From the NCBI GenBank assembly GCA_035288905.1, contig DATDYZ010000001.1, positions 19,172-83,171 on the forward strand: a stretch of 64,000 bases of DNA. Direction: 5' to 3'. This DNA is from Candidatus Anderseniibacteriota bacterium. GTDB lineage: Bacteria > Patescibacteriota > Andersenbacteria > UBA10190. The notes under the pieces were generated by a model. It did not search any database. It saw only the letters and a list, made by a program, of their open reading frames with translations, and was not told where the DNA came from. The first letter of the stretch is position 1; every line of letters starts with the position of its first letter. The translations under genes and the position numbers were made by a program. Positions 12,348 to 63,848 of this stretch are shown here, one piece after another.

Positions 12348-13106
12348 ATGGTTTCACTCAAAACTTCGCAAGAAATTGAACTCCTTGCAGAGGCGGGTGC
12401 GCTCTTAGGGGCGATACTTGATGTACTTACCAAAAAAGCAGCGGTAGGAGTGACGGGGACAGAATTAAATACCGTAGCTCACGATATGATGCAGCAAGCA
12501 GGCGCAATCCCTGTATTTTTAGGCTACGGCAAACCACCATATCCCGCAGCTATTTGTGTGTCCGTAAACGATCAAGTCGTTCATGGAATTCCAAATGATA
12601 TTCCATTTCAAGATGGGGATATAGTAAGCATAGACGCAGGACTTTCGCTGCATGGCTTAATTGTAGATAGCGCTCGAACTGTTGGCGTAGGCCATCTCAC
12701 TCCTATACAAAAAAAGCTTATGAACGTCACTAAGCAAGCGCTTGCAATTGGCATAGAACAAGCTCAAGTTGGAAACAGAACGGGAGACATTGGCTATGCC
12801 GTGCAATCATATGTCGAAAAAGAAGGATTTGAAGTTGTTCGTGCTTTAGTTGGCCATGGGGTAGGCCATGAATTGCACGAAGAACCACAAGTGCCCAACT
12901 TCGGATCAAAAGGGGCAGGTACGTTACTTACAGAGGGCATGGTACTAGCAATTGAGCCGATGGTAACGCAAGGCAGTCCCCATGTTACTACTTCTCCTGA
13001 TAAATGGAGTATTATTGCAGTCTCGGGAAAAGCATCTGCACACGAAGAACATACGATTGCAATTACAAAACAAGGGCCGAGGATCCTTACTATCGGAAAT
13101 GCATAA
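12348..13106 (+). CDS. map: Methionine aminopeptidase type I
   Basis: Pita-bread fold residues (D...D...H...E...E pattern: IDAG, HGVGHELHE, EPM). Trimmed from track ORF 12270. Confidence 0.92.
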   Translation: MVSLKTSQEIELLAEAGALLGAILDVLTKKAAVGVTGTELNTVAHDMMQQAGAIPVFLGYGKPPYPAAICVSVNDQVVHGIPNDIPFQDGDIVSIDAGLSLHGLIVDSARTVGVGHLTPIQKKLMNVTKQALAIGIEQAQVGNRTGDIGYAVQSYVEKEGFEVVRALVGHGVGHELHEEPQVPNFGSKGAGTLLTEGMVLAIEPMVTQGSPHVTTSPDKWSIIAVSGKASAHEEHTIAITKQGPRILTIGNA

Positions 13107-13632
13107 AATACCCACTAACGTCACCCCCTCCAGCTCCCCCTTGGTAAGGGGGAGAGGCGTCATTGCGTTAGACATCGGGAATCGTTATATTGGCGTTGCG
13201 GCTGCCGACCATGTGGATGCCTCGCTGGCGTATCGCTACACAACTATTGATCGTAAAACACAAGACGCACGAACAGTGCTTGCGGACATTATTACAAAAG
13301 AATCTATTGATACACTTGTGCTTGGTGTGCCGTATCATATACAAGATGGGAGTGAAACGCAGCAGACTAAAAAAACTCGTCAGTTTATAGCGTTACTAAA
13401 AAAAACATTTGACCCTGCTATTTCATACATTGAAGTTGATGAGACATTAACGTCTATGCAAGCAAAAGAAAATTTACAACACGAAGAATCGGATACGAAA
13501 GAAGAGCATGCAGAAGCCGCGCGTATTATGTTGCAAGAATTTCTTAGTTCCGCGACTGTCATGCCGGACTTGATCCGGCATCCAGGCGACGTGGATCCTT
13601 ACGTCAAGCCCGGGATGACAATGCTGTTATGA
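13099..13632 (+). CDS. ruvX: Putative pre-16S rRNA nuclease / Holliday junction resolvase-like RuvX (YqgF). Both termini are encoded by palindromic repeats.
   Basis: ALDIGNRYIGVAAAD, LVLGVP and the AEAARIMLQEFL end are YqgF-like. The first roughly 20 aa overlap repeat B and the last roughly 25 aa (MPDLIRHPGDVDPYVKPGMT) are encoded by repeat A, so the true start and stop are uncertain. Confidence 0.65.
   Translation: MHKIPTNVTPSSSPLVRGRGVIALDIGNRYIGVAAADHVDASLAYRYTTIDRKTQDARTVLADIITKESIDTLVLGVPYHIQDGSETQQTKKTRQFIALLKKTFDPAISYIEVDETLTSMQAKENLQHEESDTKEEHAEAARIMLQEFLSSATVMPDLIRHPGDVDPYVKPGMTMLL
13110..13172. repeat. Family B-variant palindromic repeat (CCCCCTCCAGCTCCCCC...GGGGGAGAGG)
   Basis: It shares its core with the insert inside hldD (59603..59688). 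Confidence 0.6.
13558..13620. repeat. Family A palindromic repeat copy
   Basis: GTCATGCCGGACTTGATCCGGCATCCAGGCGACGTGGATCC...CCCGGGATGACA. Confidence 0.8.
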
Positions 13633-15146: not shown

Positions 15147-15449
15147 CCCCTCTCCCCAATTGGGGAGAGGGTTAGGGTGAGGGCAACATCGATGCAATGC
15201 TCTGCACTACTCCATTAATATTTTTCATCACCTCATCATTCGTAAACCTCACAACTCGTATACCGCACGCATTTAGATATGTAGTACGTTCTGTATCATA
15301 TGCTTGTCCTTTCGTCGCACGGGTGTTGATCGTGCTCTGTTATGTAATACTCCCACAATCATATTCTACACCCAAGTCATATTCCTCTTGGGTTGCCCTC
15401 ACCCTCCCGCCTGTTGGCGAGGAGCCCTCTCCCCAATTGGGGAGAGGGG
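15147..15449. mobile_element. MITE-like composite element. Terminal perfect palindromes CCCTCTCCCCAATTGGGGAGAGGG with inner inverted repeats GGGTGAGGGCAAC / GTTGCCCTCACCC flank about 200 bp.
   Basis: Seen directly. Shorter versions of the same module occur at 29983, 58754, 61430 and 63736. Confidence 0.65.
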
Positions 15450-15490
15450 AACGCTACTTTGTAACTTATCCACAATATATTATTAGGGTG

Positions 15491-26552: not shown

Positions 26553-28220
26553 ATGAAAAATGGGATTTGGAATATAGTTGCAGGGGATACTGTTATTGAG
26601 GATCAGGATGAATTGATTCGTGTGCTACTTCATAATCGCAACATCACCTCTGAGGGCAGCGAAGCTTTTTTTTCTTCTTCGTATATTCGTGATATTCATG
26701 ATCCATATGATTTGTATGATATGGAAAAAGCAGTGGAGCGCGTATATCGCGCAATAAAAAAGCAAGAAAGAATAGTTGTATATGGCGATTATGATGCAGA
26801 TGGTGTTACATCTACGGCAATTATGGTAGAAACACTTACTGCACTTGGTGCTCATGTATTTCCGTATTTGCCGCACAGGTACGATGATGGATACGGTTTA
26901 CATGGGAAAGTGTTGGAACAAATGCTCTCTGAATTTGAATTAGTAATCACTGTTGATTGTGGAGTGAGCAACCGGGAAGAAATAGCTATGCTACAAGCAG
27001 CTAAAAAAGACGTTATTATTGTTGACCATCACGAAATTCCTGAACAGCTTCCAGTTGCCTATGCAATTTTGCACCCACGGCATCCGAAAGGATTATATAG
27101 TTTTGGGCATCTGTGTGGGGCTGGTATGGCGTGGAAGTTTGCACAGGCATTGTTTCGCCATGCAGATTCTCTGTTTGCATCAGATCCTGATCGAGAAAAG
27201 TGGTTGCTTGATATTGTAATGATTGGGACTATTGCGGATGTAATGCCACTTGTTGGAGAAAATCGTGCCATTGTTCGATTTGGTAAAGATGTGTTACTAC
27301 GTACAAAGCATCCAGGAATTGCAGCACTACTGAAAGAATCTCGCATTAACGTATCAACGATAACTGCGGAAGATATTGCGTTTCGAATAGTGCCTTTGTT
27401 AAATGCCGCTGGGAGAATTGGCCACCCACAATCGGCTCTCAATGCGCTTATTGCGAAAACAAGCGATCAAGCAGATGCTGCAGTAAAAAAGCTAGTGCAG
27501 ATGAATAATGAGAGGCGGACACTGACAAAGAAAATGATGGATGAGGCGAATATCGAAATAGATCATAGTCTGCCGTTTGTGTTTATAGCTAATAGTAATT
27601 GGCCAGCAGGCATTGTTGGGCTTGTGGCTGGCCGCTTGGCTTCGCAGTTTGGAAAACCTGCATTTGTGGTAGGGGGGCATAGCTCACTATCACACTCTGT
27701 AGGGTCTGCACGGGGAGGCGGCAAAATAAACATTATGTCTGCGTTAGAAACAGTTCGCCACCATACTCTTAAGTTGGGCGGGCATAAGGCAGCAGCAGGG
27801 TTTTCTGTATTGCCCGAATATATAGATCGTATGAAACATGGGTTACGAGAGTATTTTGAATCTCAAGTATTAGAGCAGTCTCCGGTAGTTCATGAAGCCG
27901 ATGCTGTTATTTCTTCGCAACTTGTGTCGTGGGATACGGCGCGGGCACTTACAAAGTTTGAGCCGTTTGGTGAAGCGAACACAAGGCCATCTTTTGTTTT
28001 AAAGGGTTTGCGGCTTTTAGAGCGCAGAACGGTTGGGAAATCAAACGATCATATAAAGGCAAAACTTCTGGTAGGCGACCGTGAAATAGATGCAATAGGG
28101 TTTGGGCTCGGGGGGCAGGTACGTGTTCTTAAAAACACTGTAGACGTCTTGGCAAGTATAGGCGTAAATGAATTTCGTGGGCGAGAAAGCCTAGAGCTTC
28201 GTCTTACGGATATACGCTAA
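26553..28220 (+). CDS. recJ: Single-stranded-DNA-specific exonuclease RecJ (DHH/DHHA1)
   Basis: VYGDYDADGVTS, VDCG and DHH motifs. Confidence 0.87.
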   Translation: MKNGIWNIVAGDTVIEDQDELIRVLLHNRNITSEGSEAFFSSSYIRDIHDPYDLYDMEKAVERVYRAIKKQERIVVYGDYDADGVTSTAIMVETLTALGAHVFPYLPHRYDDGYGLHGKVLEQMLSEFELVITVDCGVSNREEIAMLQAAKKDVIIVDHHEIPEQLPVAYAILHPRHPKGLYSFGHLCGAGMAWKFAQALFRHADSLFASDPDREKWLLDIVMIGTIADVMPLVGENRAIVRFGKDVLLRTKHPGIAALLKESRINVSTITAEDIAFRIVPLLNAAGRIGHPQSALNALIAKTSDQADAAVKKLVQMNNERRTLTKKMMDEANIEIDHSLPFVFIANSNWPAGIVGLVAGRLASQFGKPAFVVGGHSSLSHSVGSARGGGKINIMSALETVRHHTLKLGGHKAAAGFSVLPEYIDRMKHGLREYFESQVLEQSPVVHEADAVISSQLVSWDTARALTKFEPFGEANTRPSFVLKGLRLLERRTVGKSNDHIKAKLLVGDREIDAIGFGLGGQVRVLKNTVDVLASIGVNEFRGRESLELRLTDIR

Positions 28221-28830
28221 TCATCATCAGGCCTGTCCCAATTGCAAGTCGTATTGCATGAGCGCGTGGTTCTTTTTGCACTACTGTAAAAAATTCAGTG
28301 AGTTTTTTGGCATGTGATAGGGTATTGTCCGCGATGATAATTCCATGCGGTGTAATTATTTGCATGGCATACTGAAAGTAGAGGGCATATTCTTCTTTGT
28401 TTGCATCGAGAAAAATGAAGTCGAAAGACGGAGGCTGTTTGTTTAGGTTGTCATTCCGGGCTTGCTTGCCGGCCATAGCCTTGGCGTCGGCTGGACCCGG
28501 AATCCACGCGCCTGGATCCCGGCTCGGGGGCCGGGATGACACTGCTAATTGCGACATGATTTCCACCGCATCTCCTTGTATCACCTCGATAGTTTCTGAT
28601 AATCCTTCTGTTGCAATATTTTCTTTTGCTAATTTCACTCGTTCGTCAAAAAATTCTATTGTCGTTATGTTTCCACCATAGAGAGATGCAACGTTTCCCA
28701 TAAGAATTGCTGAATATCCATTTGATGTACCAACCTCTAAAATATTCTTCGGTTTTTGTGCATGAATGAGAGCCTGGAGCACAGCGCCAGAATTTGGGTC
28801 AATATTCCAGTACTCATCTTGTGGTTTCAT
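28204..28830 (-). CDS. Class I SAM-dependent O-methyltransferase (CCoAOMT/YrrM-like) carrying an in-frame Family A repeat insertion
   Basis: ILEVGTSNGYS motif I and FDFIFLDANKEEY. Between them is VSSRPPSRDPGAWIPGPADAKAMAGKQARNDN, encoded by repeat A at 28450..28552. Confidence 0.8.
   Translation of the reverse strand: MKPQDEYWNIDPNSGAVLQALIHAQKPKNILEVGTSNGYSAILMGNVASLYGGNITTIEFFDERVKLAKENIATEGLSETIEVIQGDAVEIMSQLAVSSRPPSRDPGAWIPGPADAKAMAGKQARNDNLNKQPPSFDFIFLDANKEEYALYFQYAMQIITPHGIIIADNTLSHAKKLTEFFTVVQKEPRAHAIRLAIGTGLMMISVYP
28450..28552. repeat. Family A palindromic repeat (long form) inside the O-methyltransferase CDS
   Basis: GTCATTCCGGGC...CCGGCTCGGGGGCCGGGATGACAC. Confidence 0.8.
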
Positions 28831-29982: not shown

Positions 29983-30022
29983 CGCCCTCTCCCTCGACGG
30001 GGAGAGGGATGGGGTGAGGGGT
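29983..30022. repeat. Family B palindromic repeat variant (CCCTCTCCCTCGACGGGGAGAGGG + GGGGTGAGGGG)
   Basis: Seen directly. Confidence 0.7.
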
Positions 30023-30030
30023 ATCGCGTT

Positions 30031-30444
30031 ATGAAACGAGCGACGTTATTCACAGACGGCGGGGCGAGGGGTAACCCGGGTCCCGCCGCAATCGGTTTTG
30101 TGCTTACTGGTATTGGAAGCGCGCCTATTTTATATAAAGAATATATTGGGAAAGGCACGAACAACCAGGCAGAGTATCGTGCGTTATTAGCGGGTATTAC
30201 TCGTGCAAAAAAAGAGGGAGTAAAAGATTTGTTGTGCTATTTAGATAGCGAATTAGTGGTAAAGCAGGTGCGAGGAGAATACAGAGTTAAAAATGAAGAG
30301 CTAAAACTTTTGCTTACAGAAATAAAAAAACTACTACCCGTTTTTGATTCTATAACATTCCAACACGTTCCGCGCGCTAAAAACGCTATTGCGGATAAGC
30401 TGGTGAATGAGGCGTTGGACTCCAATTTTGCAGATGGACTATAA
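30031..30444 (+). CDS. rnhA: Ribonuclease HI
   Basis: FTDGGARGNPGPAA, NNQAEYRAL and the DSELVVKQ catalytic DEDD pattern. Confidence 0.9.
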   Translation: MKRATLFTDGGARGNPGPAAIGFVLTGIGSAPILYKEYIGKGTNNQAEYRALLAGITRAKKEGVKDLLCYLDSELVVKQVRGEYRVKNEELKLLLTEIKKLLPVFDSITFQHVPRAKNAIADKLVNEALDSNFADGL

Positions 30445-30782
30445 GCCGGATTCTGTTAAAGGCAATCATCTGTCTTGTTCTGCTATCGCTAGCAGAATCT
30501 TTGCCCTCTACCTGCCCCGTTATTCACGAAGCGACTTGAGGTTGCACTCGGTGGGGTTTGCACCCTCGCCGTATTACTACGGCGCGGCGTGGGCTCTTAC
30601 CCCACGATTTCACCATTGCTAATAAAAGCTGTTTGTTTCTGTTGCGCTCTTCGCCCTGCAAGCAGGGTCCCTAGGCTTGCGCCTGGCAGACGTTATCTGC
30701 CACTGTTTTCTTGAGTGTCCGGACTTTCCTCTCAGGCCCTTCGATTTCTCTCAGGGTAAAGCGATTGCCCATCCATCTGCGT
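30425..30782 (-). ncRNA. rnpB: RNase P RNA (bacterial type), antisense to the last about 20 nt of rnhA
   Basis: The minus strand reads GAGGAAAGUCCGGAC (P4 5' strand), GGUAAGAGCCCAC, and ACAGAAUCCGGCUUAUAG near the 3' end. The P1 helix GCAGAUGGA / UCCAUCUGC defines the ends. Confidence 0.75.
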
Positions 30783-36322: not shown

Positions 36323-36961
36323 ATGATTGGGATTATATCTATGAACTGTAACGAATATCACATAATCGGAATGAGTCCTGGTAATAGCTATTTTAAGGAT
36401 GAAGAAATTCTTTACCTGCTCAAAACTACAATTGATCGTTTTGGTAAGGTAGCTATTTTAATTGCGGATATTCCTGCAATATCTACATACATAGCTTTGG
36501 GGTATCCAGAAAATCGAGCACGGCGTGATAAGGCCATACCAAAAGGCAATGCGTTAAAAAATCGCGTACGAAAAATAATGGCCAAGCTTGGTTATTCTGA
36601 GGATATTGTCAGAATTATTGATTGGGAACATGAAGTAGAAAATAATTCCGAGTATCAGAAAAGCTATCAAAATGTACTTGAATTATACAAGCAGAATCGA
36701 GCGTTTCATAGCGCTGCAGATACTACTACCTACTTAGTGCTTGAAAGCTCAAAAAAGGATTTTGATGACATTGAACTCGCCACTGGTATTGCGGTTCATT
36801 ATCTTTTATCAGAGTTTGCTTTTTTGGAGTTTGCGCCGAGCTTTTTGGAAGCAACAAAAGTTATTTATGTTTATCATAAAAACTGGCAAGTATACGAAGA
36901 TTATATCGCAGGTAAATTTGATCATGTCGTACGTCCAAATTTAGGTTTTCTATTACTATAG
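36323..36961 (+). CDS. Cyclodipeptide synthase (CDPS, AlbC/YvmC family)-like protein
   Basis: HIIGMSPGNSYF aligns with the AlbC HALIGISAGNSYF region (catalytic Ser). TYLVLE gives a Y..x3..E pair, and a later VYHKN gives a YH. Length (212 aa) is in the CDPS range. Confidence 0.55.
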   Translation: MIGIISMNCNEYHIIGMSPGNSYFKDEEILYLLKTTIDRFGKVAILIADIPAISTYIALGYPENRARRDKAIPKGNALKNRVRKIMAKLGYSEDIVRIIDWEHEVENNSEYQKSYQNVLELYKQNRAFHSAADTTTYLVLESSKKDFDDIELATGIAVHYLLSEFAFLEFAPSFLEATKVIYVYHKNWQVYEDYIAGKFDHVVRPNLGFLLL

Positions 36962-36980: not shown

Positions 36981-37010
36981 CTTATTCCAAGGCTTTGCCT
37001 TGGAATATAG
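36981..37010. repeat. REP-C palindrome TTCCAAGGCTTTGCCTTGGAA
   Basis: Perfect hairpin. Confidence 0.8.
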
Positions 37011-37035: not shown

Positions 37036-37701
37036 ATGAGTTATCGGCATGTGGGCTTTGCACCAGGTGAGATATATCACATATTCACTCGTGGCGTTGA
37101 GAAAAGAAAGATCTTTCTCTATGATGCTGATCGAATCCGTTTTCTTTCGCTCCTTGTGCATTGTTTACCACAAGGTCCAATCCAAAGTTTTTCTGTCGCG
37201 CAAAAACTCAAGCGAAAAACTGAGATTACCGCTTCTGGCGAAGGGCTAGTAGATATTCTCTGTTACTGCCTTATGAATAATCATATTCACCTGCTCCTGA
37301 AAGAAAATGTCGAAAAAGGTATTTCTATATACATGCAACGACTGCTCACTAGCTACGCTATGTATTTTAACAGAAGATCTGAGCGTTCAGGATCCTTATT
37401 TGTAAATCCGTTTAAGGCGGTTGTAGTTGATGCTGACGATCAATTCCTGCACGTCACTCGATATATTCATCTAAATCCGTTTGTTGCGCATCTGGTTGAA
37501 GACCCCTTTGGATATATTTGGTCTTCTTTACATGAATACACAGCTGCTTCACAAGAAAGTAAAATTTGTCACCCTGAATTACTCCGAGGAATAATGGGAC
37601 AACAGGAGTATCACCGTTTTGTGCTAGATCATGCCGACTATTCGCAGTCGCTTGTAGATAATTATCACCTTCTTATCGACATTGATGAAGAAGTGTCATA
37701 A
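37036..37701 (+). CDS. IS200/IS605-like HuH Y1 transposase (REP-associated tyrosine transposase, RAYT-like)
   Basis: HuH motif NNHIHLLL and the conserved tyrosine region TRYIHLNP. Flanked by REP-C copies. Confidence 0.8.
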   Translation: MSYRHVGFAPGEIYHIFTRGVEKRKIFLYDADRIRFLSLLVHCLPQGPIQSFSVAQKLKRKTEITASGEGLVDILCYCLMNNHIHLLLKENVEKGISIYMQRLLTSYAMYFNRRSERSGSLFVNPFKAVVVDADDQFLHVTRYIHLNPFVAHLVEDPFGYIWSSLHEYTAASQESKICHPELLRGIMGQQEYHRFVLDHADYSQSLVDNYHLLIDIDEEVS

Positions 37702-37705
37702 AGGC

Positions 37706-37735
37706 GTTATTCCAAGGCTTTGCCTTGGAATGCGT
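37706..37735. repeat. REP-C palindrome copy
   Basis: TTCCAAGGCTTTGCCTTGGAA. Confidence 0.8.
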
Positions 37736-43814: not shown

Positions 43815-43847
43815 GGAATCATTCCGACACCTGGTGTCGGAATCTTG
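43815..43847. repeat. REP-D palindrome TTCCGACACCTGGTGTCGGAA
   Basis: Perfect hairpin. Confidence 0.8.
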
Positions 43848-43863
43848 TGATAGAATATTTACT

Positions 43864-44523
43864 ATGGGGTATCGAATAAATGGGTTTGAGCGGGGCGGTG
43901 TATACCACATATTTACGCGCGGTGTGGAGAAGAGGGAAATTTTTATGGATCATTCCGATCGTGTACGGTTTATCTCGCAAATGATTCATTGCTTGCCCGA
44001 TGAGCCTATTCTGAATTTTTCGCATGCACAAAAACTAAAACGAAAGTTGATAATAACCAGCGAAGGGGAGGGGTTAGCGGATATTCTTTGTTATTGCTTA
44101 ATGAATAATCATGTTCATTTTTTGCTCCGAGAAAATGTTGATGGTGGTATTTCGCGCTATATGCAACGGCTGCTCAATAGCTTCGCTCGGTATTTTAATG
44201 TTAAATACGAGCGCACTGGGGCGTTATTTGCGGGTCCGTTTCGGTCTGTTCCTGTGGTAAGTGATGATCAGCTTTTGCACGTAAGTAGGTATATTCATCT
44301 TAATCCTCATGCTGCGCATATAGTAAAGGATGTCTTCGCATATCCCTGGTCCTCGTTACGTGCATACTTAAACGACGAAGATTCGAAACTTTATTGCCAC
44401 GCTGACTTTCTTGCGTCATTAATGGATAAAAAAGAATATAAAAAATTCGTTTTCGATCAAGTGAGTTACGAACAATCCTTAGCTGCTTTTCCTGAACTTC
44501 TTTTAGATGATGACTATACTTAA
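43864..44523 (+). CDS. HuH Y1 transposase (RAYT-like), second paralog
   Basis: VYHIFTRGVEKREIF, NNHVHFLL and SRYIHLNPH. Trimmed from track ORF 43834, which starts in the REP. Confidence 0.8.
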   Translation: MGYRINGFERGGVYHIFTRGVEKREIFMDHSDRVRFISQMIHCLPDEPILNFSHAQKLKRKLIITSEGEGLADILCYCLMNNHVHFLLRENVDGGISRYMQRLLNSFARYFNVKYERTGALFAGPFRSVPVVSDDQLLHVSRYIHLNPHAAHIVKDVFAYPWSSLRAYLNDEDSKLYCHADFLASLMDKKEYKKFVFDQVSYEQSLAAFPELLLDDDYT

Positions 44524-44570
44524 TTCCGACACCTGGTGTCGGAATAAGTTCCCTGGTGTCGGAATAAGTT
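44521..44570. repeat. REP-D palindrome plus tandem half-copy
   Basis: TTCCGACACCTGGTGTCGGAATAAGTTCCCTGGTGTCGGAATAAGTT. Confidence 0.75.
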
Positions 44571-44572
44571 CT

Positions 44573-44865
44573 TTTCTGGCCCGTTTCGTGCTGTAGCTGT
44601 TGTACGTGATGAGCAATTTCTTCACGTAAGTAGGTATATTCACTTGAATCCATATGCGGCCCATATGACAAAGGATCCGCTTACATATAAATGGTCTTCT
44701 CTTGGCGAGTACTTTTTAGATGAAAGCAATAAAACAGCTTCTTGCCACACGAACTTTCTATTATCGTTAATAAGCTCTAAAGAATACAGAAGTTTTGTTG
44801 CAGACTACGCAGAGTATGCTCAGTCTCTCGCAAGCTACCCAGAATTGCTTATAGACGATGAATAA
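44573..44865 (+). pseudogene. C-terminal fragment of a third RAYT paralog (lacks the HuH N-terminal half)
   Basis: It translates to FSGPFRAVAVVRDEQFLHVSRYIHLNPYAAHM..., which parallels residues about 125-229 of the upstream transposase. There is no N-terminal domain. Confidence 0.65.
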
Positions 44866-46079: not shown

Positions 46080-46123
46080 AAGATTGAAATAATTAGAAAA
46101 CCGTGGTATTTTCATGGAATTGT

Positions 46124-47938
46124 ATGGAAATACGCAATTTTTGTATTATCGCGCATATTGATCATGGAAAGAGCACACTGGCAGACCGGATGCTCGAGTT
46201 AACGCATACCGTCGAAATGAGAGATATGCAGGCGCAGCTACTAGACTCTATGGAGCTGGAGCGAGAAAAAGGAATAACCATTAAGCTTCAACCAGTACGC
46301 ATGGAGCATAAAGGCTTTGTATTAAATTTAATAGATACTCCCGGGCATGTAGATTTCCAGTACGAAGTATCAAGAAGTCTGAAAGCAGTTGAAGGGGCTA
46401 TTTTACTTGTAGATGCTACGCAAGGTGTGCAAGCACAGACGGTTTCTAATTTATATTTTGCACTCGAAAAAAATCTGGAAATAATTCCTGTTATTAATAA
46501 AATAGACTTACCAGCTGCAGACGTTGAGGGCGTATCTCAAGAAATTATTAATCTTTTGGGTGCAAAAAAAGAAGATATACTTCATATATCTGCGAAGACG
46601 GGACAGGGGGTTCCGGAATTATTGGATGCAGTGATTGCGCGGGTGCCGGCGGCCACGCGCCCCTCACCCCCTGCCACGGCAGGGCCCTCTCCCAGAACGG
46701 GAGAGGGGAGCGAAAACCTGCGGGCGCTTATATTTGATTCGGTGTACGACGACTACAAGGGTGTGGTTGCATATGTGCGGGTTATGGAAGGAAGCGTTTC
46801 GCAAGGCGATGCGATTACGTTTTTAGGGACAGATGTTGATGATAGGGTAGTTGAAGTGGGCGTATTTAAACCACAATTTACTTCGCGTGAAAAAATTGGA
46901 GCGGGAGAAATTGGATATATTGCAACTGGCTTAAAAAATATTCGACAGGCTCGCGTGGGCGATACAATTACAAAAACAGTAGAAAAACATGAAGTGGAGC
47001 AACTCCCCGGCTTTGCAATTCCTCAACCGAAAGTCTTTGCTGGATTATACCCTGTAGATGGAAGCGACTTCCCTGTATTGCGCGAAGCAATGAGCCGACT
47101 GCAACTCAATGATTCTAGTTTAACTGCTCATATGGAGCGAAGCCATGCACTCGGGCAAGGTTTTCGATGTGGGTTTTTAGGAATGCTCCATTTAGAAATT
47201 GTGCAAGAGAGGCTGCGAAGAGAATTCGACGTAGAGTTGGTAGTCACGACTCCGAGCGTGCTCTACCACGTGGTGTTAACCTCCGGCGAGAAAAAAGATA
47301 TTCATACACCAGATGCGTTTCCGGATCCGAGTTTTGTCACATCTATGGAAGAGCAATGGTGTAAGGCAGATATATTACTTCCTCAGAAGTATCTCGGAGC
47401 CGTATTTGAAGTTATGGCACAACATGAAGGGAATTTAATTTCGCAAGAAGTATTGGGAACAGACCGCATGCTATTGCATTATGAATTGCCACTTCGAGAA
47501 CTTGTTGTCGATTTGTATGATCAACTAAAATCTATAACAAGTGGATATGGTTCGTTAAGTTATGATGTGATTGGTTGGAGGTCGGCAGACGTGGTGAAGC
47601 TGACAATCTTAATGAATCATGAAGTTGCTGAAGCGTTGTCATTAATTATTCCACGTACCAAAGCAGAAGCAATCGGGCGCCGAGTAGTCGATAAGCTAAA
47701 GGATCTTGTGCCGCGACAACAATTCGCAGTGCCTATTCAAGCAGCAATCGGTGGCAAAGTTGTAGCTCGCGAGACGGTACCCGCGCTTCGAAAAGACGTG
47801 ACGGCAAAGCTGTATGGAGGAGACGTAACTCGAAAACGAAAACTCTTAGATAAGCAGAAAAAAGGAAAAAAACGCCTTTCCACGAAAGGGTCTATCAATT
47901 TACCCCCAGAAGCATATATTCAGTTGCTCAAAAGGTGA
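46124..47938 (+). CDS. lepA: Translation elongation factor 4 (LepA), carrying an in-frame Family B repeat insertion
   Basis: IIAHIDHGKSTLADR and DTPGHVDF G-motifs, and the C-terminal LepA domain. The extra segment ATRPSPPATAGPSPRTGEGSE lies before the conserved LRALIFDS. Confidence 0.92.
   Translation: MEIRNFCIIAHIDHGKSTLADRMLELTHTVEMRDMQAQLLDSMELEREKGITIKLQPVRMEHKGFVLNLIDTPGHVDFQYEVSRSLKAVEGAILLVDATQGVQAQTVSNLYFALEKNLEIIPVINKIDLPAADVEGVSQEIINLLGAKKEDILHISAKTGQGVPELLDAVIARVPAATRPSPPATAGPSPRTGEGSENLRALIFDSVYDDYKGVVAYVRVMEGSVSQGDAITFLGTDVDDRVVEVGVFKPQFTSREKIGAGEIGYIATGLKNIRQARVGDTITKTVEKHEVEQLPGFAIPQPKVFAGLYPVDGSDFPVLREAMSRLQLNDSSLTAHMERSHALGQGFRCGFLGMLHLEIVQERLRREFDVELVVTTPSVLYHVVLTSGEKKDIHTPDAFPDPSFVTSMEEQWCKADILLPQKYLGAVFEVMAQHEGNLISQEVLGTDRMLLHYELPLRELVVDLYDQLKSITSGYGSLSYDVIGWRSADVVKLTILMNHEVAEALSLIIPRTKAEAIGRRVVDKLKDLVPRQQFAVPIQAAIGGKVVARETVPALRKDVTAKLYGGDVTRKRKLLDKQKKGKKRLSTKGSINLPPEAYIQLLKR
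46659..46712. repeat. Family B-type palindrome (CCCTCTCCCAGAACGGGAGAGGGG with GC-rich flanks) inside the lepA CDS
   Basis: Seen directly. It sits in-frame. Confidence 0.7.
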
Positions 47939-47945
47939 CACCACG

Positions 47946-47977
47946 CTGTCATCCCGGGCTTGACCCGGGATCCAGGT
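47946..47977. repeat. Family A repeat, half copy
   Basis: TGTCATCCCGGGCTTGACCCGGGATCCAGG. Confidence 0.7.
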
Positions 47978-48086
47978 TGTATTAATATACTGAGCAACTT
48001 TCTTGAGATGCCATGAACAATCTCAAGAGGCCAGGTGCATAACCGTAGAGGAAGAATAAGGCAGCCTACACCCTGTCACTGACCTC

Positions 48087-48130
48087 CTTTTATGTGTCGC
48101 CCGGCTTAGCTCAACGATTGAGTGATGCCG
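48087..48130 (+). terminator. Terminator-like stem-loop GCCCGGC...GCCGGG followed by TTTTTTCTTTTTTT
   Basis: Seen directly. Confidence 0.45.
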
Positions 48131-48266
48131 GGTTTTTTCTTTTTTTATTCTCCTATATACTTTCATATATGCAACAAGACCAAGAAATTCTACCTCCAGA
48201 ACAGGCCAGAGAGTGGCTGAATGAATTTCTGGTAGAGCAGCAAGAAGAAAGTAAGTAGTTTTTCCT

Positions 48267-57224: not shown

Positions 57225-58217
57225 ATGAAACATATTTCACTAAAACGAGCGAAAGAAATTACCTCAAAGTTTAGCAGTCAAAAAGTTTTGGTCATTGGAG
57301 ATGCAATGATTGATCACTATGTGCTAGGGGTGGTACAGCGGGTGAACCCCGAAGCCCCTGTATCTCTGTTGAATGTGAAAGAAAAACGTGACATGAGCGG
57401 AGGTGCGGGTAATGCAGCGAAAAACGTTGCAACACTTGGTGCTGCCACTACCCTCCTTACGATTACCGGAGATGACCCGGCAGCATTTCGACTGAAGGAA
57501 ATTGCAGAAGCGGAACTGTATAAAGTGTACCCAATTCGAGATGGTTCTCGTCCAACTATTCAAAAGAGTAGGTATATGGCAAATCACCAACAACTGTTGC
57601 GGGTAGACGAAGAGGAAAAGCACCCGGTATCTCCTGAAATTGAAAAGCAAATAATAGCAGATATGGAGAAGTTGCAAGAAGGAATAACTGCGATTGTTGT
57701 TTCTGATTACGACAAGGGATTTATTACGCCCAATGTTGCTTCTGCTATTATTGCTATTGCTCATGATCGTTCTCTGCCGATTATTGCTGACTTGAAGGCG
57801 AATCACGTTCCGTTGTTTAAAGGAGTTACGGCTATTACTCCAAATCGAAAAGAAGCACATGAATTTCTTTCGCTTAATTGGCCAGATGAAAAAAAGCCAC
57901 CTGAATATTTAGCACAAGAACTTTCAAAGATGATGAAAAGCGATGTATTTGTAACGCTCGGAGATGAAGGTATTTACCTGCGGGATCGTGAAGGAGAAGA
58001 GTTCCATATTAATCCCGCGCGAAAAATTGAAGTGTTTGATGTGTCTGGGGCTGGCGATACGGTAGTTGCAACGTTAGCGTTATCGTATGCTTCGGGCGCT
58101 ACTGCATTTGAGGCTGGGGAATTAGCAAATGCAGCAGGTGCTGTTGTGGTAGGCAAGGTTGGAAGCGTTGCTCCTACTGTGGAAGAGATTTTAGAAATGG
58201 TTGAGTCTGAGGAATAG
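57225..58217 (+). CDS. hldA: D-glycero-beta-D-manno-heptose-7-phosphate kinase (stand-alone HldE kinase domain, PfkB family)
   Basis: VLVIGDAMIDHY, GGAGN and the C-terminal GAGDTVVA. Trimmed from track ORF 57078. Confidence 0.83.
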   Translation: MKHISLKRAKEITSKFSSQKVLVIGDAMIDHYVLGVVQRVNPEAPVSLLNVKEKRDMSGGAGNAAKNVATLGAATTLLTITGDDPAAFRLKEIAEAELYKVYPIRDGSRPTIQKSRYMANHQQLLRVDEEEKHPVSPEIEKQIIADMEKLQEGITAIVVSDYDKGFITPNVASAIIAIAHDRSLPIIADLKANHVPLFKGVTAITPNRKEAHEFLSLNWPDEKKPPEYLAQELSKMMKSDVFVTLGDEGIYLRDREGEEFHINPARKIEVFDVSGAGDTVVATLALSYASGATAFEAGELANAAGAVVVGKVGSVAPTVEEILEMVESEE

Positions 58218-58788
58218 TCCTTCTCGTATGCTTAAGCGCGTCATCTTTTTAGATCGCGATGGAACGCTGAACGTTGACCATGGATATGTGCACTCACGCG
58301 AACAGTGGGAGTGGGTGCCTGGTGCACTGGATGCATGTAAACAACTCCAAGATGCAGGGTATACGCTTGCAGTGATAACGAATCAATCCGGCATTGCCCA
58401 TGGCTTATATACAGAAGAAGCGATGCATGAGTTGCATCGATATATGAGATTGGAATTGGATCAGTATGGCGTGCATCTTGCGATGATTGCATTTTGTCCG
58501 CATGCTAGAAGCCAGACAGATTGCGATTGCAGAAAACCTCATATAGGGATGGCAAAACAAATTGAGGCAAAAATTGGTGAAATTGACTATGCAAATAGTT
58601 GGACAGTAGGTGATAAAGAAGCTGATTTGTTATTTGGCAAAACTGCAGGAACAAAAACGGCATTGATACGAAGTAAGTATTGGGAAGAAGGCAAACTAAC
58701 GGTACAACCTGATATGGTTGTTGATTCTCTGGAACAGGCGGCAGTTAGTATCACCTCTTCCCAATTGGGGAGAGGTCGCTCTGTATGA
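58201..58788 (+). CDS. gmhB: D,D-heptose 1,7-bisphosphate phosphatase
   Basis: IFLDRDGTLN and CPHARSQTDCDCRKP. The start could instead be the internal ATG at 58228. The C-terminal roughly 10 aa run into repeat B. Confidence 0.83.
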   Translation: MSLRNSPSRMLKRVIFLDRDGTLNVDHGYVHSREQWEWVPGALDACKQLQDAGYTLAVITNQSGIAHGLYTEEAMHELHRYMRLELDQYGVHLAMIAFCPHARSQTDCDCRKPHIGMAKQIEAKIGEIDYANSWTVGDKEADLLFGKTAGTKTALIRSKYWEEGKLTVQPDMVVDSLEQAAVSITSSQLGRGRSV

Positions 58789-58980: not shown

Positions 58981-59493
58981 ATGGAACTTCCACATCATTG
59001 GAGAAAAGAGAAAATTTTAACCCTGGAAGAAGCAGCAAAAAAGTCTGCGGAACTTCGAGCACAAGGAAAGACAATCGTAAGCCATAACGGGTCTTATGAC
59101 CTACTTCACGGCGGGCATTTAGACATGCTTGAAGAAGCAAAGCAACAGGGCGATATTCTTATTGTTGGAATAAACACGGACGTTTCTATCCGTGATGCAA
59201 AGGGCCCTACTCGTCCTATTATTGGTGTAGAAAATCGTGCGGCTATGCTTGCTGCACTTATTTGCGTCGATTATGTAACAGTGATGGATGGGGCGTACAA
59301 CGAGGAGCCACAAGGTTCGTTTATACCTGCTATTAAGCCGCACATTCATGTGAATGGTGAAGAATACGGGCCAGAAGAAAAGTGGATTGAATACGGTGCA
59401 ATGCAAGCATGTGGAGCGAAGGGATACTCGGTAGGACGCAGACCAAACCTTTCAACCTCAGACATCATCAAGAAGATTCAATCGGAAGTATGA
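58981..59493 (+). CDS. hldC: D-beta-D-heptose-1-phosphate adenylyltransferase (stand-alone HldE C-terminal domain)
   Basis: Cytidylyltransferase motif SHNGSYDLLHGGH. Trimmed from track ORF 58939. Confidence 0.83.
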   Translation: MELPHHWRKEKILTLEEAAKKSAELRAQGKTIVSHNGSYDLLHGGHLDMLEEAKQQGDILIVGINTDVSIRDAKGPTRPIIGVENRAAMLAALICVDYVTVMDGAYNEEPQGSFIPAIKPHIHVNGEEYGPEEKWIEYGAMQACGAKGYSVGRRPNLSTSDIIKKIQSEV

Positions 59494-60551
59494 TTGTCGT
59501 AACTGGCGCAGCAGGGTTCATTGGAAGTGCTACGGTGTGGGCACTTAATCAAAAAGGCCGAGAAGATATTATTATTGTGGATGAGATAATTGATAACCCG
59601 ATTCTCCCACCCCCTCCAGCTCCCCCTCGGGCAGGGGGAGAGAACGCGGCGGACGCTTCGCCGAGTAGCGACTCGGCTCGCGAAAAGGAACACAATATCG
59701 GGCATTTGAAGTATGATCAAATGATGGGTATTGCCGATTTTCGAAAGCAATTACTATCAGGAGAACTGGATAGCTTAGGTATAGAAGCAATTATTCATTT
59801 GGGTGCATGCAGCGCAACTACAGAAACAAATTGGGACTATTTGCTGGATAACAACGTGGAGTATACCAAAGATATGATCCGCTGGTGCCAAACGAATAAC
59901 GCTCGGTGCGTGTATGCATCCAGTGCGGCAACATATGGTGATGGAGAGGTAGGGTATGACGATAATCACGACCTATTTGACTCGCTGGTACCGATGAACC
60001 TCTACGGCAAATCAAAGCTGTTAGTTGATATATGGGCGCGAGATGGCGGCTATTTAGATGGGGCAGTTGGTCTTCGATACTTTAACGTATTTGGTCCGAA
60101 TGAATGGCATAAAGGCTCTATGATGAGCGTAGTTGCAAAAAAGTACCCTGAAATTGCCTCTGGCAAACCCATTACGTTGTTTAAGTCGTATGAAAAGGAC
60201 TATGGTGATGGTGAACAAAAACGAGACTTCGTGTATGTAAAAGATGCAGTGAGAGCCACTCTCTTTTTTATGGATAACATGCAACATAATGGAGTGTATA
60301 ACGTGGGTATGGGAATTGCCCGTTCCTGGCTTGATGTTGCCCGCGCCATGTTTGCAGCATCTAGTATTCCAGAAAAGGTAGAGTTTATCGAGATGCCAGA
60401 TAATCTCAAAAACCAATATCAATACTTTACGCAGGCAAATATTAAAAAGTTAGAAGCAACAGGATTTGATATGAGTCAAAATTATTCTTTAGAGAAAGCA
60501 GTGACAGAATATATCCAAGAACATTTAGCTCCTCATAAACACTTAGTATGA
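59490..60551 (+). CDS. hldD: ADP-L-glycero-D-manno-heptose 6-epimerase, carrying an in-frame Family B repeat insertion
   Basis: [22 protein letters not shown] and the YxxxK catalytic pattern. The ATGA start overlaps the hldC stop. Trimmed from track ORF 59409. The extra segment [29 protein letters not shown] lies in the first variable loop. Confidence 0.88.
59603..59688. repeat. Family B-variant repeat inside the hldD CDS
   Basis: CCCCCTCCAGCTCCCCCTCGGGCAGGGGGAGAG plus the CGAGTAGCGACTCG palindrome. Confidence 0.7.
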
Positions 60552-61429: not shown

Positions 61430-61541
61430 TCCCCTCTCCCCAATTGGGGAGAGGGTTAGGGAGAGGGCAACCCACGACGCAACGACAGCCCTCACCCCTG
61501 CCTGCGGGCTAGGCCCTCTCCCCCATATGGGTAGAGGGGAA
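61430..61541. repeat. Family B composite repeat (two palindromes flanking GGGCAAC..ACGACAGCCCTCACCCC)
   Basis: Seen directly. Confidence 0.75.
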
Positions 61542-63735: not shown

Positions 63736-63848
63736 TCCCTTCTCCCCAATTGGGGAGAAGGTGCCTCGCCAGAGCGGGCGGATGAGGGCAGGACACAACG
63801 CTACAACAGCCCTCACCCCAACCCTCTCCCCCCATGGGGAGAGGGGGT
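63736..63848. repeat. Family B composite repeat
   Basis: CCCTTCTCCCCAATTGGGGAGAAGG ... ACAACAGCCCTCACCCC ... CCCTCTCCCCCCATGGGGAGAGGGGG. Confidence 0.75.

Follow-up and report, generated by a model that had tools for sequence, protein, structure and literature searches.

GTAG/CGTC repetitive extragenic palindromic (REP) sequences are short (20–40 nt), GC-rich stem-loops found mostly between genes, frequently as inverted dimers (Di Nocera et al. 2013, PMC3733652). Some, a minority, are contained entirely within open reading frames (ORFs), where they add 10–30 residues, and tRNA-synthetase and repair genes are among the hosts; different REPs occupy about the same recB site in two Xanthomonas species, and REP ends can supply stop codons (PMC3733652). 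Here we describe a 53-nt palindromic element in lepA, the gene for translation elongation factor 4 (EF4), that is very probably a singlet of a GC-rich family resembling REPs and REP doublets forming hairpins (REPINs), inserted into the linker that leads from the GTPase domain to domain II. The gene lies in a 64,000-nt stretch, called the window below, of a Candidatus Anderseniibacteriota bacterium (GCA_035288905.1, contig DATDYZ010000001.1, positions 19,172 to 83,171, forward strand). The source lineage is Candidatus Andersenbacteria, of the Parcubacteria group in the Patescibacteria or candidate phyla radiation (CPR). CPR/Patescibacteria genomes are small and streamlined, and selfish DNA is not expected to persist in their core genes.

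Elhai and colleagues reportedly found small dispersed repeats in cyanobacteria, with palindromic units of 20–30 nt that appear to insert into genes and into other repeats and that have no identified transposase. The elements considered here are like them in having short palindromic units inside genes; sequences and lineage differ. Rickettsia palindromic elements (RPEs; Ogata et al. 2000, 2002, via PMC10969869) are about 100–150 bp long, form ten Rickettsia-specific families and encode conserved peptides. In REPIN–RAYT systems (PMC8049555, PMC5581495), REP doublets are mobilised by REP-associated tyrosine transposases (RAYTs), and the usual RAYT is present in single copy. [quoted passage not shown]

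The element in the lepA linker

The lepA ORF extends from 46103 to 47938 on the + strand, with a likely ATG start at 46124 and a product of 604 aa plus stop. This product is identical to P0001, a Candidatus Andersenbacteria protein whose annotation is translation elongation factor 4. The gene and the parts of the putative insert are as follows.

46124 to 47938, + strand: host gene lepA, encoding EF4 (ORF list, protein identity, PDB, Pfam, dN/dS)
46660 to 46712, minus strand relative to the family unit: probable inserted REP-like palindromic element, singlet, long form (alignment to intergenic copies)
46661 to 46669, + strand: third arm CCCTCACCC, complementary to GGGTGAGGG, a module that stands beside the core in almost every unit
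46669 to 46684, + strand: small variable hairpin CCCTGC-CACG-GCAGGG between third arm and core (fold, copy comparison)
46685 to 46707, + strand: core palindrome CCCTCTCCC-AGAAC-GGGAGAGGG, with 9-bp arms and a 5-nt loop (pattern search)

The product aligned end to end with solved EF4 structures (PDB, E=4e-185), and Pfam identified GTP_EFTU (residues 2–175), GTP_EFTU_D2 (213–283), EFG_III, EFG_C and LepA_C, which is the five-domain EF4 architecture including the LepA-specific C-terminal domain. The ratio of nonsynonymous to synonymous substitution (dN/dS) was 0.025–0.03 against three orthologues, at a dS of 1.6–2.0 where synonymous sites are saturated. These values point to strong purifying selection on lepA and indicate that EF4 remains functional.

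The linker between the '…VPxA' and 'LRALIFDS' segments is 8–10 aa long across 120 orthologues and 23 aa long in this lepA. DNA alignment with the closest loci, L001 and L002 (93% aa and about 80% nt identity), showed a net lengthening by 39 nt (13 codons); the closest relatives have 10-aa linkers, and L013 provided a further baseline. Compared with Thermus EF4, 14 residues are extra, between the G domain and domain II (PDB alignment). An earlier note on this DNA had proposed that a palindromic repeat is inserted in frame at 46659–46712, adding roughly 20 aa. The insert itself was borne out with essentially those ends, and the reading frame is preserved as claimed, the net length being a multiple of three. 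The extra segment is shorter than proposed, about eight of the residues quoted being ordinary linker. The same note had named relatives sharing the segment without repeat similarity as the observation that would tell against an insertion; the segment is absent from P0003 (93% identity) and P0006, which are the closest relatives. These comparisons indicate that the segment is an insertion and not ancestral sequence.

On the + strand of the window, the element reads CCCTCACCCC, the small hairpin, and then CCCTCTCCC-AGAAC-GGGAGAGGG-GAGCG. The family unit used for orientation consists of tag, core, spacer or hairpin, and GGGTGAGGGC, by which the lepA copy lies on the minus strand. A core palindrome with an AGAACG loop had been described; the palindrome is there, and its loop is AGAAC. 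No matches to the core pattern are expected in shuffled sequence. Each module of the segment, even the loop variant, has its counterpart in copies that lie between genes in the window and in other Andersenbacteria genomes, and the ends of the segment at about 46660 and 46712 were set by two such intergenic copies in MHHS01. One of them (L025:2753) matches the lepA element at 26/26 nt, including the AGAAC loop and the GAGCG tail, and the other (L035:3167) equals the lepA element without the 12-nt inner hairpin (37/38 nt). This inner hairpin is missing in short-form copies, e.g. L035, and has another sequence in L024, L026 and the window copies at 15396 and 61489. Copies are nearly identical between genomes even though lepA of the same genomes is saturated at synonymous sites.

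GC content peaks at 80% in the insert compared to 44% across the window. Folded as RNA, the element reaches −32.8 kcal/mol (z=−3.5 versus shuffles). Neither a terminator nor a promoter made by the insert was found at 46650–46720, and Rfam searches of the whole window at gathering thresholds returned RNase P only, with no match to the element. Stop codons are missing from five of the six frames of the element and likewise in most family members. Because they are stop-free in most frames, palindromes as GC-rich as these are able to persist within coding sequence whichever way round they lie. The lepA element encodes residues of about 179–196 (…RPSPPATAGPSPRTGEGS…), a Pro/Gly/Ser-rich peptide, and the tryptic peptides predicted across the insert are …VPAATR, PSPPATAGPSPR and TGEGSENLR.

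An AlphaFold2 model of EF4 was built on 60 orthologues and had a mean predicted local distance difference test score (pLDDT) of 82.6. Residues 180–195 were modelled as coil with a pLDDT below 50, between the G domain's last helix (163–173) and the first strand of domain II (200–209). The structural check suggested earlier, whether the insert is a surface loop, thus gave a disordered coil in the interdomain linker, and the insert is predicted to form a disordered loop between the GTPase domain and domain II.

Family B and other palindromes in the window and in other genomes

The family to which the lepA element belongs, family B, is short, GC-rich, dispersed and mostly intergenic, with a core of 23–24 nt and eight copies in 64 kb. 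A relaxed core pattern found six copies in the window where none were expected. The intergenic units are listed below.

15148 to 15183, + strand: short form, with GTAGTGTTC, core, TTA and GGGTGAGGG (pattern search, flank comparison)
15396 to 15455, minus strand: long form, with GCCCTCACCC, hairpin, core and GAACGCTAC; 57 nt are identical to L038, from another genome
29985 to 30020, + strand: unit with loop TCGAC (pattern search)
61432 to 61541, no strand: REPIN-like tail-to-tail doublet of two units with a shared spacer (pattern search, alignment)
63738 to 63845, no strand: second tail-to-tail doublet (pattern search)

The second half of the first doublet (61489–61541) is the copy in the window closest to the lepA element. 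Inverted dimers, as known for REPs, are represented by the two doublets and by the inverted pair 15148/15425. In the cross-genome census described below, the flanks of the AATT-loop cores define the unit as (G/A)TAG, a few bases, GTTC, the core, 1–3 nt or a small variable hairpin, and GGGTGAGGGC. Of the 24 oriented units, 13 have [GA]TAG within 22 nt upstream (background 0.11, p~2e-7), at a distance of 5–13 nt from the stem. The tag is missing from the lepA copy and from 5/6 in-ORF copies among the oriented units, L024 being the one that keeps it. The unit at 29985–30020 lies about 400 nt from a bacterial RNase P RNA class A gene (30426–30780, minus strand, 211.5 bits).

For a cross-genome census, one genome per species was scanned with the exact 24-nt AATT-loop core. 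This core was found in Andersenbacteria metagenome-assembled genomes (MAGs) including MHHS01, DATIIA01, JBPOIM01 and JAQBWN01 (at least eight copies), and also in some MAGs labelled Saccharibacteria. About a quarter of the AATT-loop cores among the CPR loci examined lie within long ORFs. In other phyla the exact matches were isolated, being singletons apart from three in one Asaia bogorensis MAG. Loci in MAGs labelled Erythrobacter, Asaia, Methylomirabilis, Chloroflexi and others carry the exact core (L021, L023, L028–L031, L033, L040, L042 and L046), often with GGGTGAGGG nearby; chance, bin contamination and a wider distribution are all possible. Neither the exact family-B core nor the D14 pattern, which defines a second palindrome family, was found in IMG/VR in a viral vector search.

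Family B had been described as lying between genes everywhere except in lepA. The other copies in the window are indeed intergenic, apart from a degenerate one at 58749–58777. The statement fails beyond the window, where other genomes have several genes that contain family B in frame, and sister families are in frame in two more genes of the window.

28432 to 28551, minus strand: in-frame insert of about 36 aa in a gene of O-methyltransferase family 3 (28204–28830), combining family A (GTCATCCCGG…) with an element of the GCTATGGCCGGCAA type
59595 to 59702, + strand: in-frame insert of about 28 aa, including the D14 copy 59608–59642, in an HldD-like ADP-heptose epimerase gene (59490–60551)
58749 to 58788, + strand: degenerate family-B copy (palindrome 58749–58777) from which a GmhB-like heptose-bisphosphate phosphatase gene (58201–58788) takes its final ~10 codons and its stop

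The O-methyltransferase insert splits both the Pfam and the PDB alignments in two. The epimerase insert, which was delimited by PDB and Pfam alignments only, also holds two small hairpins, one of them containing GTAG (CCGAGTAGCGACTCGG), and its D14 copy represents the family found in lepA of the sister lineages L002 and L010. A gene at L002:19860–20906 was considered as the HldD-like orthologue and was rejected because it encodes a different short-chain dehydrogenase/reductase enzyme. A RuvX/YqgF-like ORF (12982–13632, + strand) contains a D14 palindrome (13122–13156) in an N-terminal extension; its true start may be downstream, in which case this copy would be intergenic. The GC island at 124–174 was rejected as a further element, as it is ordinary rpsJ coding sequence, non-palindromic and outside any family.

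In other genomes, family-B cores are in frame in zwf-gnd (a fusion of glucose-6-phosphate dehydrogenase, G6PD, and 6-phosphogluconate dehydrogenase, 6PGDH), in cysS (Cys-tRNA synthetase) and in large membrane proteins. The core is at the same site of the G6PD-6PGDH fusion, in the 6PGDH NAD-binding domain, in three genomes. The exact conservation of these 24-nt cores was considered as evidence of selection and rejected, as the loci had been retrieved by the exact core, an ascertainment bias. Comparison of the fusion genes L043:1703–4111 and L017:5095–7488 (L045 has the core as well) revealed a second in-frame insert (SAVAQPAGGAMAGKRE) in L043 that is not in L017. Orthologous membrane proteins, L041:3932–6202 and L024:1–2158 (reverse complement), have family B at the same site in opposite orientations, and the L041 ORF contains repeat-derived peptides from three families.

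Within 64 kb, palindromic inserts lie in frame in three conserved genes, and in a fourth gene a palindrome supplies the C-terminus and stop. A Rickettsia-like habit of insertion into genes thus seems to be common in this lineage, lepA not being an isolated case. With their many naturally filled, empty and replaced sites, these loci lend themselves to work on the movement and loss of REP-like hairpins. They also pose an annotation hazard. The peptides PSPQLGRG, SPLPNWGEG and LSPIGERG in CPR proteins are repeat-derived, and such peptides can distort alignments, start-codon calls and domain boundaries.

Relation to known repeat systems and RAYT-like genes

The elements resemble GTAG/CGTC REPs in being short, GC-rich, dispersed stem-loops with inverted dimers and a minority inside ORFs, and in supplying a stop codon at 58749–58788. 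They differ in that [GA]TAG is only statistically enriched and not adjacent to the stem, in having an extra third arm (GGGTGAGGG) with or without the variable inner hairpin, and in their CPR/Patescibacteria host, which lies outside the REP survey. A further difference is that a single linker of at most 10 codons, in an essential-type translation factor, holds at least five elements or orientations. Membership of family B in the GTAG-REP superfamily is plausible at most, the tag position being atypical.

RPE-like behaviour had been proposed for the lepA insert, and it holds for behaviour only. As with RPEs, palindromes that appear selfish lie in frame in unrelated, intact genes of a small-genome bacterium (lepA, the O-methyltransferase, the HldD-like epimerase, zwf-gnd and cysS), are compatible with the fold, in lepA as a disordered interdomain loop, and make up a substantial intragenic fraction. 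The units are 24–60 nt and REP/REPIN-like; the comparison with RPEs was by size and behaviour. The lepA element, with its 53 nt and 39-nt gain, falls short of 100–150 bp, and the encoded peptides differ by frame and orientation instead of being conserved. RPE family membership is therefore not supported, on size. The likeness to intragenic MITEs consists of non-autonomous repeats with open frames that form in-frame fusions with host genes; the units here are much shorter, no target-site duplication was seen and no parent insertion sequence (IS) was identified.

The absence of earlier reports from CPR genomes, as the earlier note supposed, agrees with our searches, which covered an open-access library and turned up no account of elements of this kind from CPR/Patescibacteria or Andersenbacteria. 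Intragenic REP-like behaviour is already known in other phyla (PMC3733652); what is added here is a CPR lineage and an unusually clear multi-family linker hotspot.

Tail-to-tail doublets with a conserved spacer suggest a link to REPIN–RAYT systems, and RAYT-like Y1 (HUH) genes in a REPtron-like layout are present in the window at 37036–37701 and 43834–44523 (with a fragment at about 44568–44714). The second of these represents the following feature.

43821 to 44545, + strand: RAYT-like Y1 transposase gene (43834–44523) flanked by perfect palindromes ATTCCGACACCTGGTGTCGGAAT, REPtron-like; a candidate for the type of mobilising enzyme, associated with a repeat of a different family

Each RAYT-like gene has its own perfect, AT-richer palindromes, at 36982–37006 and 37707–37731 for the first gene and at 43821–43843 and 44523–44545 for the second. 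These palindromes are also dispersed (44871, 45728 and 53063; 36270). The sole NCBIfam match of the two genes is the REP-associated tyrosine transposase model, at 48 and 43 bits compared to a cutoff of 80. We aligned the two proteins with the protein from L012, where the same REPtron layout lies directly upstream of lepA, and compared 80 related metagenome loci. The block at 43.8–46.1 kb is missing from the syntenic loci L001 and L002. In contrast to the usual single-copy RAYT, at least two RAYT-like copies are present in 64 kb, they score below cutoff, and the palindrome on their flanks is another one, richer in AT. A RAYT gene with family B itself at its sides was not found in the part of the genome covered by the window, and tblastn of the 8-kb loci around 33 copies in other genomes detected no RAYT-like gene near family B. 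A REPIN–RAYT system is not demonstrated for the lepA family. The first RAYT-like gene adjoins a tRNA-dependent cyclodipeptide synthase gene (36323–36961, + strand; TIGR04539, 123.6 bits), a secondary-metabolism gene of a sort unusual in CPR genomes.

Other elements in the lepA linker and their possible history

The DNA of eight further orthologous lepA loci was compared across the linker. Sister lineages have at least five other palindromic elements or orientations in this same stretch of at most 10 codons. The L002 linker contains the D14 family in reverse orientation, with 34/35 nt identical to window positions 59608–59642, and L010 contains D14 in forward orientation (32/34 nt versus 13123–13156). 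L008 and L009 have a nested hairpin, CCCCGTAAA…GACCACGGGG (CCCCGTAAA…ACGGGG), L012 has a family-B-like 5' half in a different reading frame, and L011 has an unrelated palindrome of about 66 nt. The linker holds 18 of the roughly 37 internal length variants among 120 orthologues; the loops after residues 62–63, 287 and 542 also vary. In a neighbour-joining LepA tree with the linker masked, which is shallow and lacks resampling support, inserts are at scattered tips. The tightest clade (P0001, P0003, P0005 and P0002) combines three different inserts and one protein without an insert.

The simplest reading of these data would be recent or ongoing mobility of the palindromes combined with purifying selection acting as a filter. 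Presumably the element travels, or once travelled, as a hairpin of single-stranded DNA, and a HUH tyrosine transposase of the RAYT/IS200 type moves or moved it; the REP-like traits, i.e. doublets, [GA]TAG enrichment and RAYT-like genes, point to such a mechanism. Alternatively, the hairpin may have promoted template switching or recombination where the linker has its G-rich Glu-Gly codons. In lepA the insertion persists because the 39-nt gain is a multiple of three, the element is stop-free in five of six frames and encodes a Pro/Gly/Ser-rich peptide, and its place is a tolerant surface linker. Purifying selection would remove almost all other intragenic insertions and leave permissive loops visibly occupied, which we propose as the reason why different elements are found in the same linker of sister lineages.

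Several observations weigh against a straightforward version of this reading. No transposase could be tied to the lepA family among the RAYT-like genes of the window, L012, the 33 family-B loci or the 80 RAYT-like loci. The RAYT-like genes of the window and L012 are flanked by ATTCCGACACCWGGTGTCGGAAT or TTATTCCAAGGCTTTGCCTTGGAAT and not by the GC-rich family, and the 80 distant RAYT-like loci (at most 42% identity) lack palindromes of family B, D14, family A, D5 or D8. The filled-versus-empty junctions at lepA, L002 and zwf-gnd show neither a target-site duplication nor a clean junction. At lepA, the G-rich end of the element (GGA GAG GGG AGC) stands in place of the ancestral Glu-Gly codons, which are GAA GGG in L001 and GAG GGC in L013. 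Because a 53-nt element yielded a net gain of 39 nt, overlaps ancestral codons and left no duplication, the event was no simple cut-and-paste insertion with clean ends. Moreover, L001 is what remains, codon for codon, when a 24-nt hairpin is taken out of L002, and it still has 12/15 nt of the non-palindromic D14 arm. Some apparently empty sites may hence be secondary losses, and the history may be one of turnover at an old insertion instead of repeated new hits. Lastly, the segment is probably translated, to judge from conservation of the frame, a criterion that carries an ascertainment bias since the proteins retrieved were all intact. The missing target-site duplications, the GAG-GGx codon overlap and the L001 footprint equally allow template switching or microhomology recombination.

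The strongest rival takes up this footprint. One ancestral insertion would have turned the lepA linker into a landing pad, with later replacement by recombination, gene conversion, REP-next-to-REP integration and hairpin deletion. We regard this as possible, although clearly less probable than the reading given above. Besides the deletion footprint in L001, it would account for the inserts of L008 and L009, which align codon by codon at 25/33 nt, near the gene-wide nucleotide identity of about 80% (window, L001 and L002), though the two belong to different subclades. The linker is 9–10 aa in this clade compared to 8–9 aa in outgroups, and the membrane protein orthologues L024 and L041 illustrate family B at one site in opposite orientations. 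On the other hand, the elements in the lepA linker differ in family, orientation and frame, so that every replacement would still be a separate acquisition from a dispersed family, and the many tips with a baseline linker would each require a precise loss; the shallow tree without resampling support counts against this history as well. Recruitment of the element for a function kept by selection, such as an mRNA or DNA hairpin that pauses translation where domains I and II meet, a site for protein binding or a longer, flexible linker that tunes EF4, is unlikely. The near identity of copies across genomes despite saturated synonymous divergence would suit it, as would the very stable structure, the position of the inserts at a domain boundary and inner hairpins that keep their pairing across copies. 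Conserved master copies that spread recently explain that identity equally well, however, and close relatives lack the element or have unrelated sequence at the site, so EF4 needs no specific sequence or peptide there. The same families also occur in unrelated genes and intergenic DNA in both orientations, and no terminator- or promoter-like signal or Rfam match accompanies the insert.

A broader proposal, for which we see little probability, is that in Andersenbacteria, and perhaps more widely in the CPR, core housekeeping proteins have interdomain linkers and surface loops to which several families of tiny GC-rich hairpins are actively targeted or in which selection retains them. An enzyme whose role as their transposase has yet to be recognised would move them, and selection on DNA or RNA structure would maintain their sequence across species, for example as co-translational pause sites or as sites recognised by a protein of the host or the element. 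If so, hairpin elements would be a lineage-wide mechanism that generates and regulates protein loops rather than mere passengers. Lineage-specific expansion of a variable Pro/Gly-rich linker, for instance by slippage, with a likeness to repeats due to GC composition, is very improbable. The linker is the most length-variable internal LepA site in the clade, and some orthologues have AT-rich, low-complexity inserts with no sign of a palindrome. Expansion is nevertheless contradicted by module-by-module identity over about 50 nt including the loop variant, by the 26/26 and 37/38 nt intergenic copies, by the L002 and L010 inserts that match dispersed copies (34/35 and 32/34 nt), and by shuffles, which predict no matches to the core pattern. 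The rpsJ island, which served as a GC-rich control, is neither palindromic nor a family member. Repeats are classic misassembly sites and the source is a MAG, yet an assembly or binning artefact, e.g. a chimeric join at a repeat, is scarcely credible. The identical 604-aa product is encoded on four contigs, independently assembled from four samples and with the same flanking genes, which excludes misassembly, and the frame continues on both sides of the insert with 93% aa identity to orthologues. The source samples, behind ERZ28563803, ERZ27254752, ERZ28563625 and ERZ4903072, are groundwater. The most probable explanation thus remains insertion of a single REP/REPIN-like unit into the lepA linker.

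The region downstream of lepA has features of its own. A family-A palindrome (47945–47986) directly follows the lepA stop codon in the window. Between lepA and a dTDP-sugar isomerase gene (window ~47945–48262) lies a conserved small ORF of about 33 aa (…ILSPEEARxWLNDFLxxQQxEE*), which is shared by the window, L001, L002, L008, L009, L012 and L013 and was not identified in L010. Downstream of lepA, the window and L001 hold about 200 extra nt with a terminator-like hairpin (GCCCGGC…GCCGGGTTTTTT).

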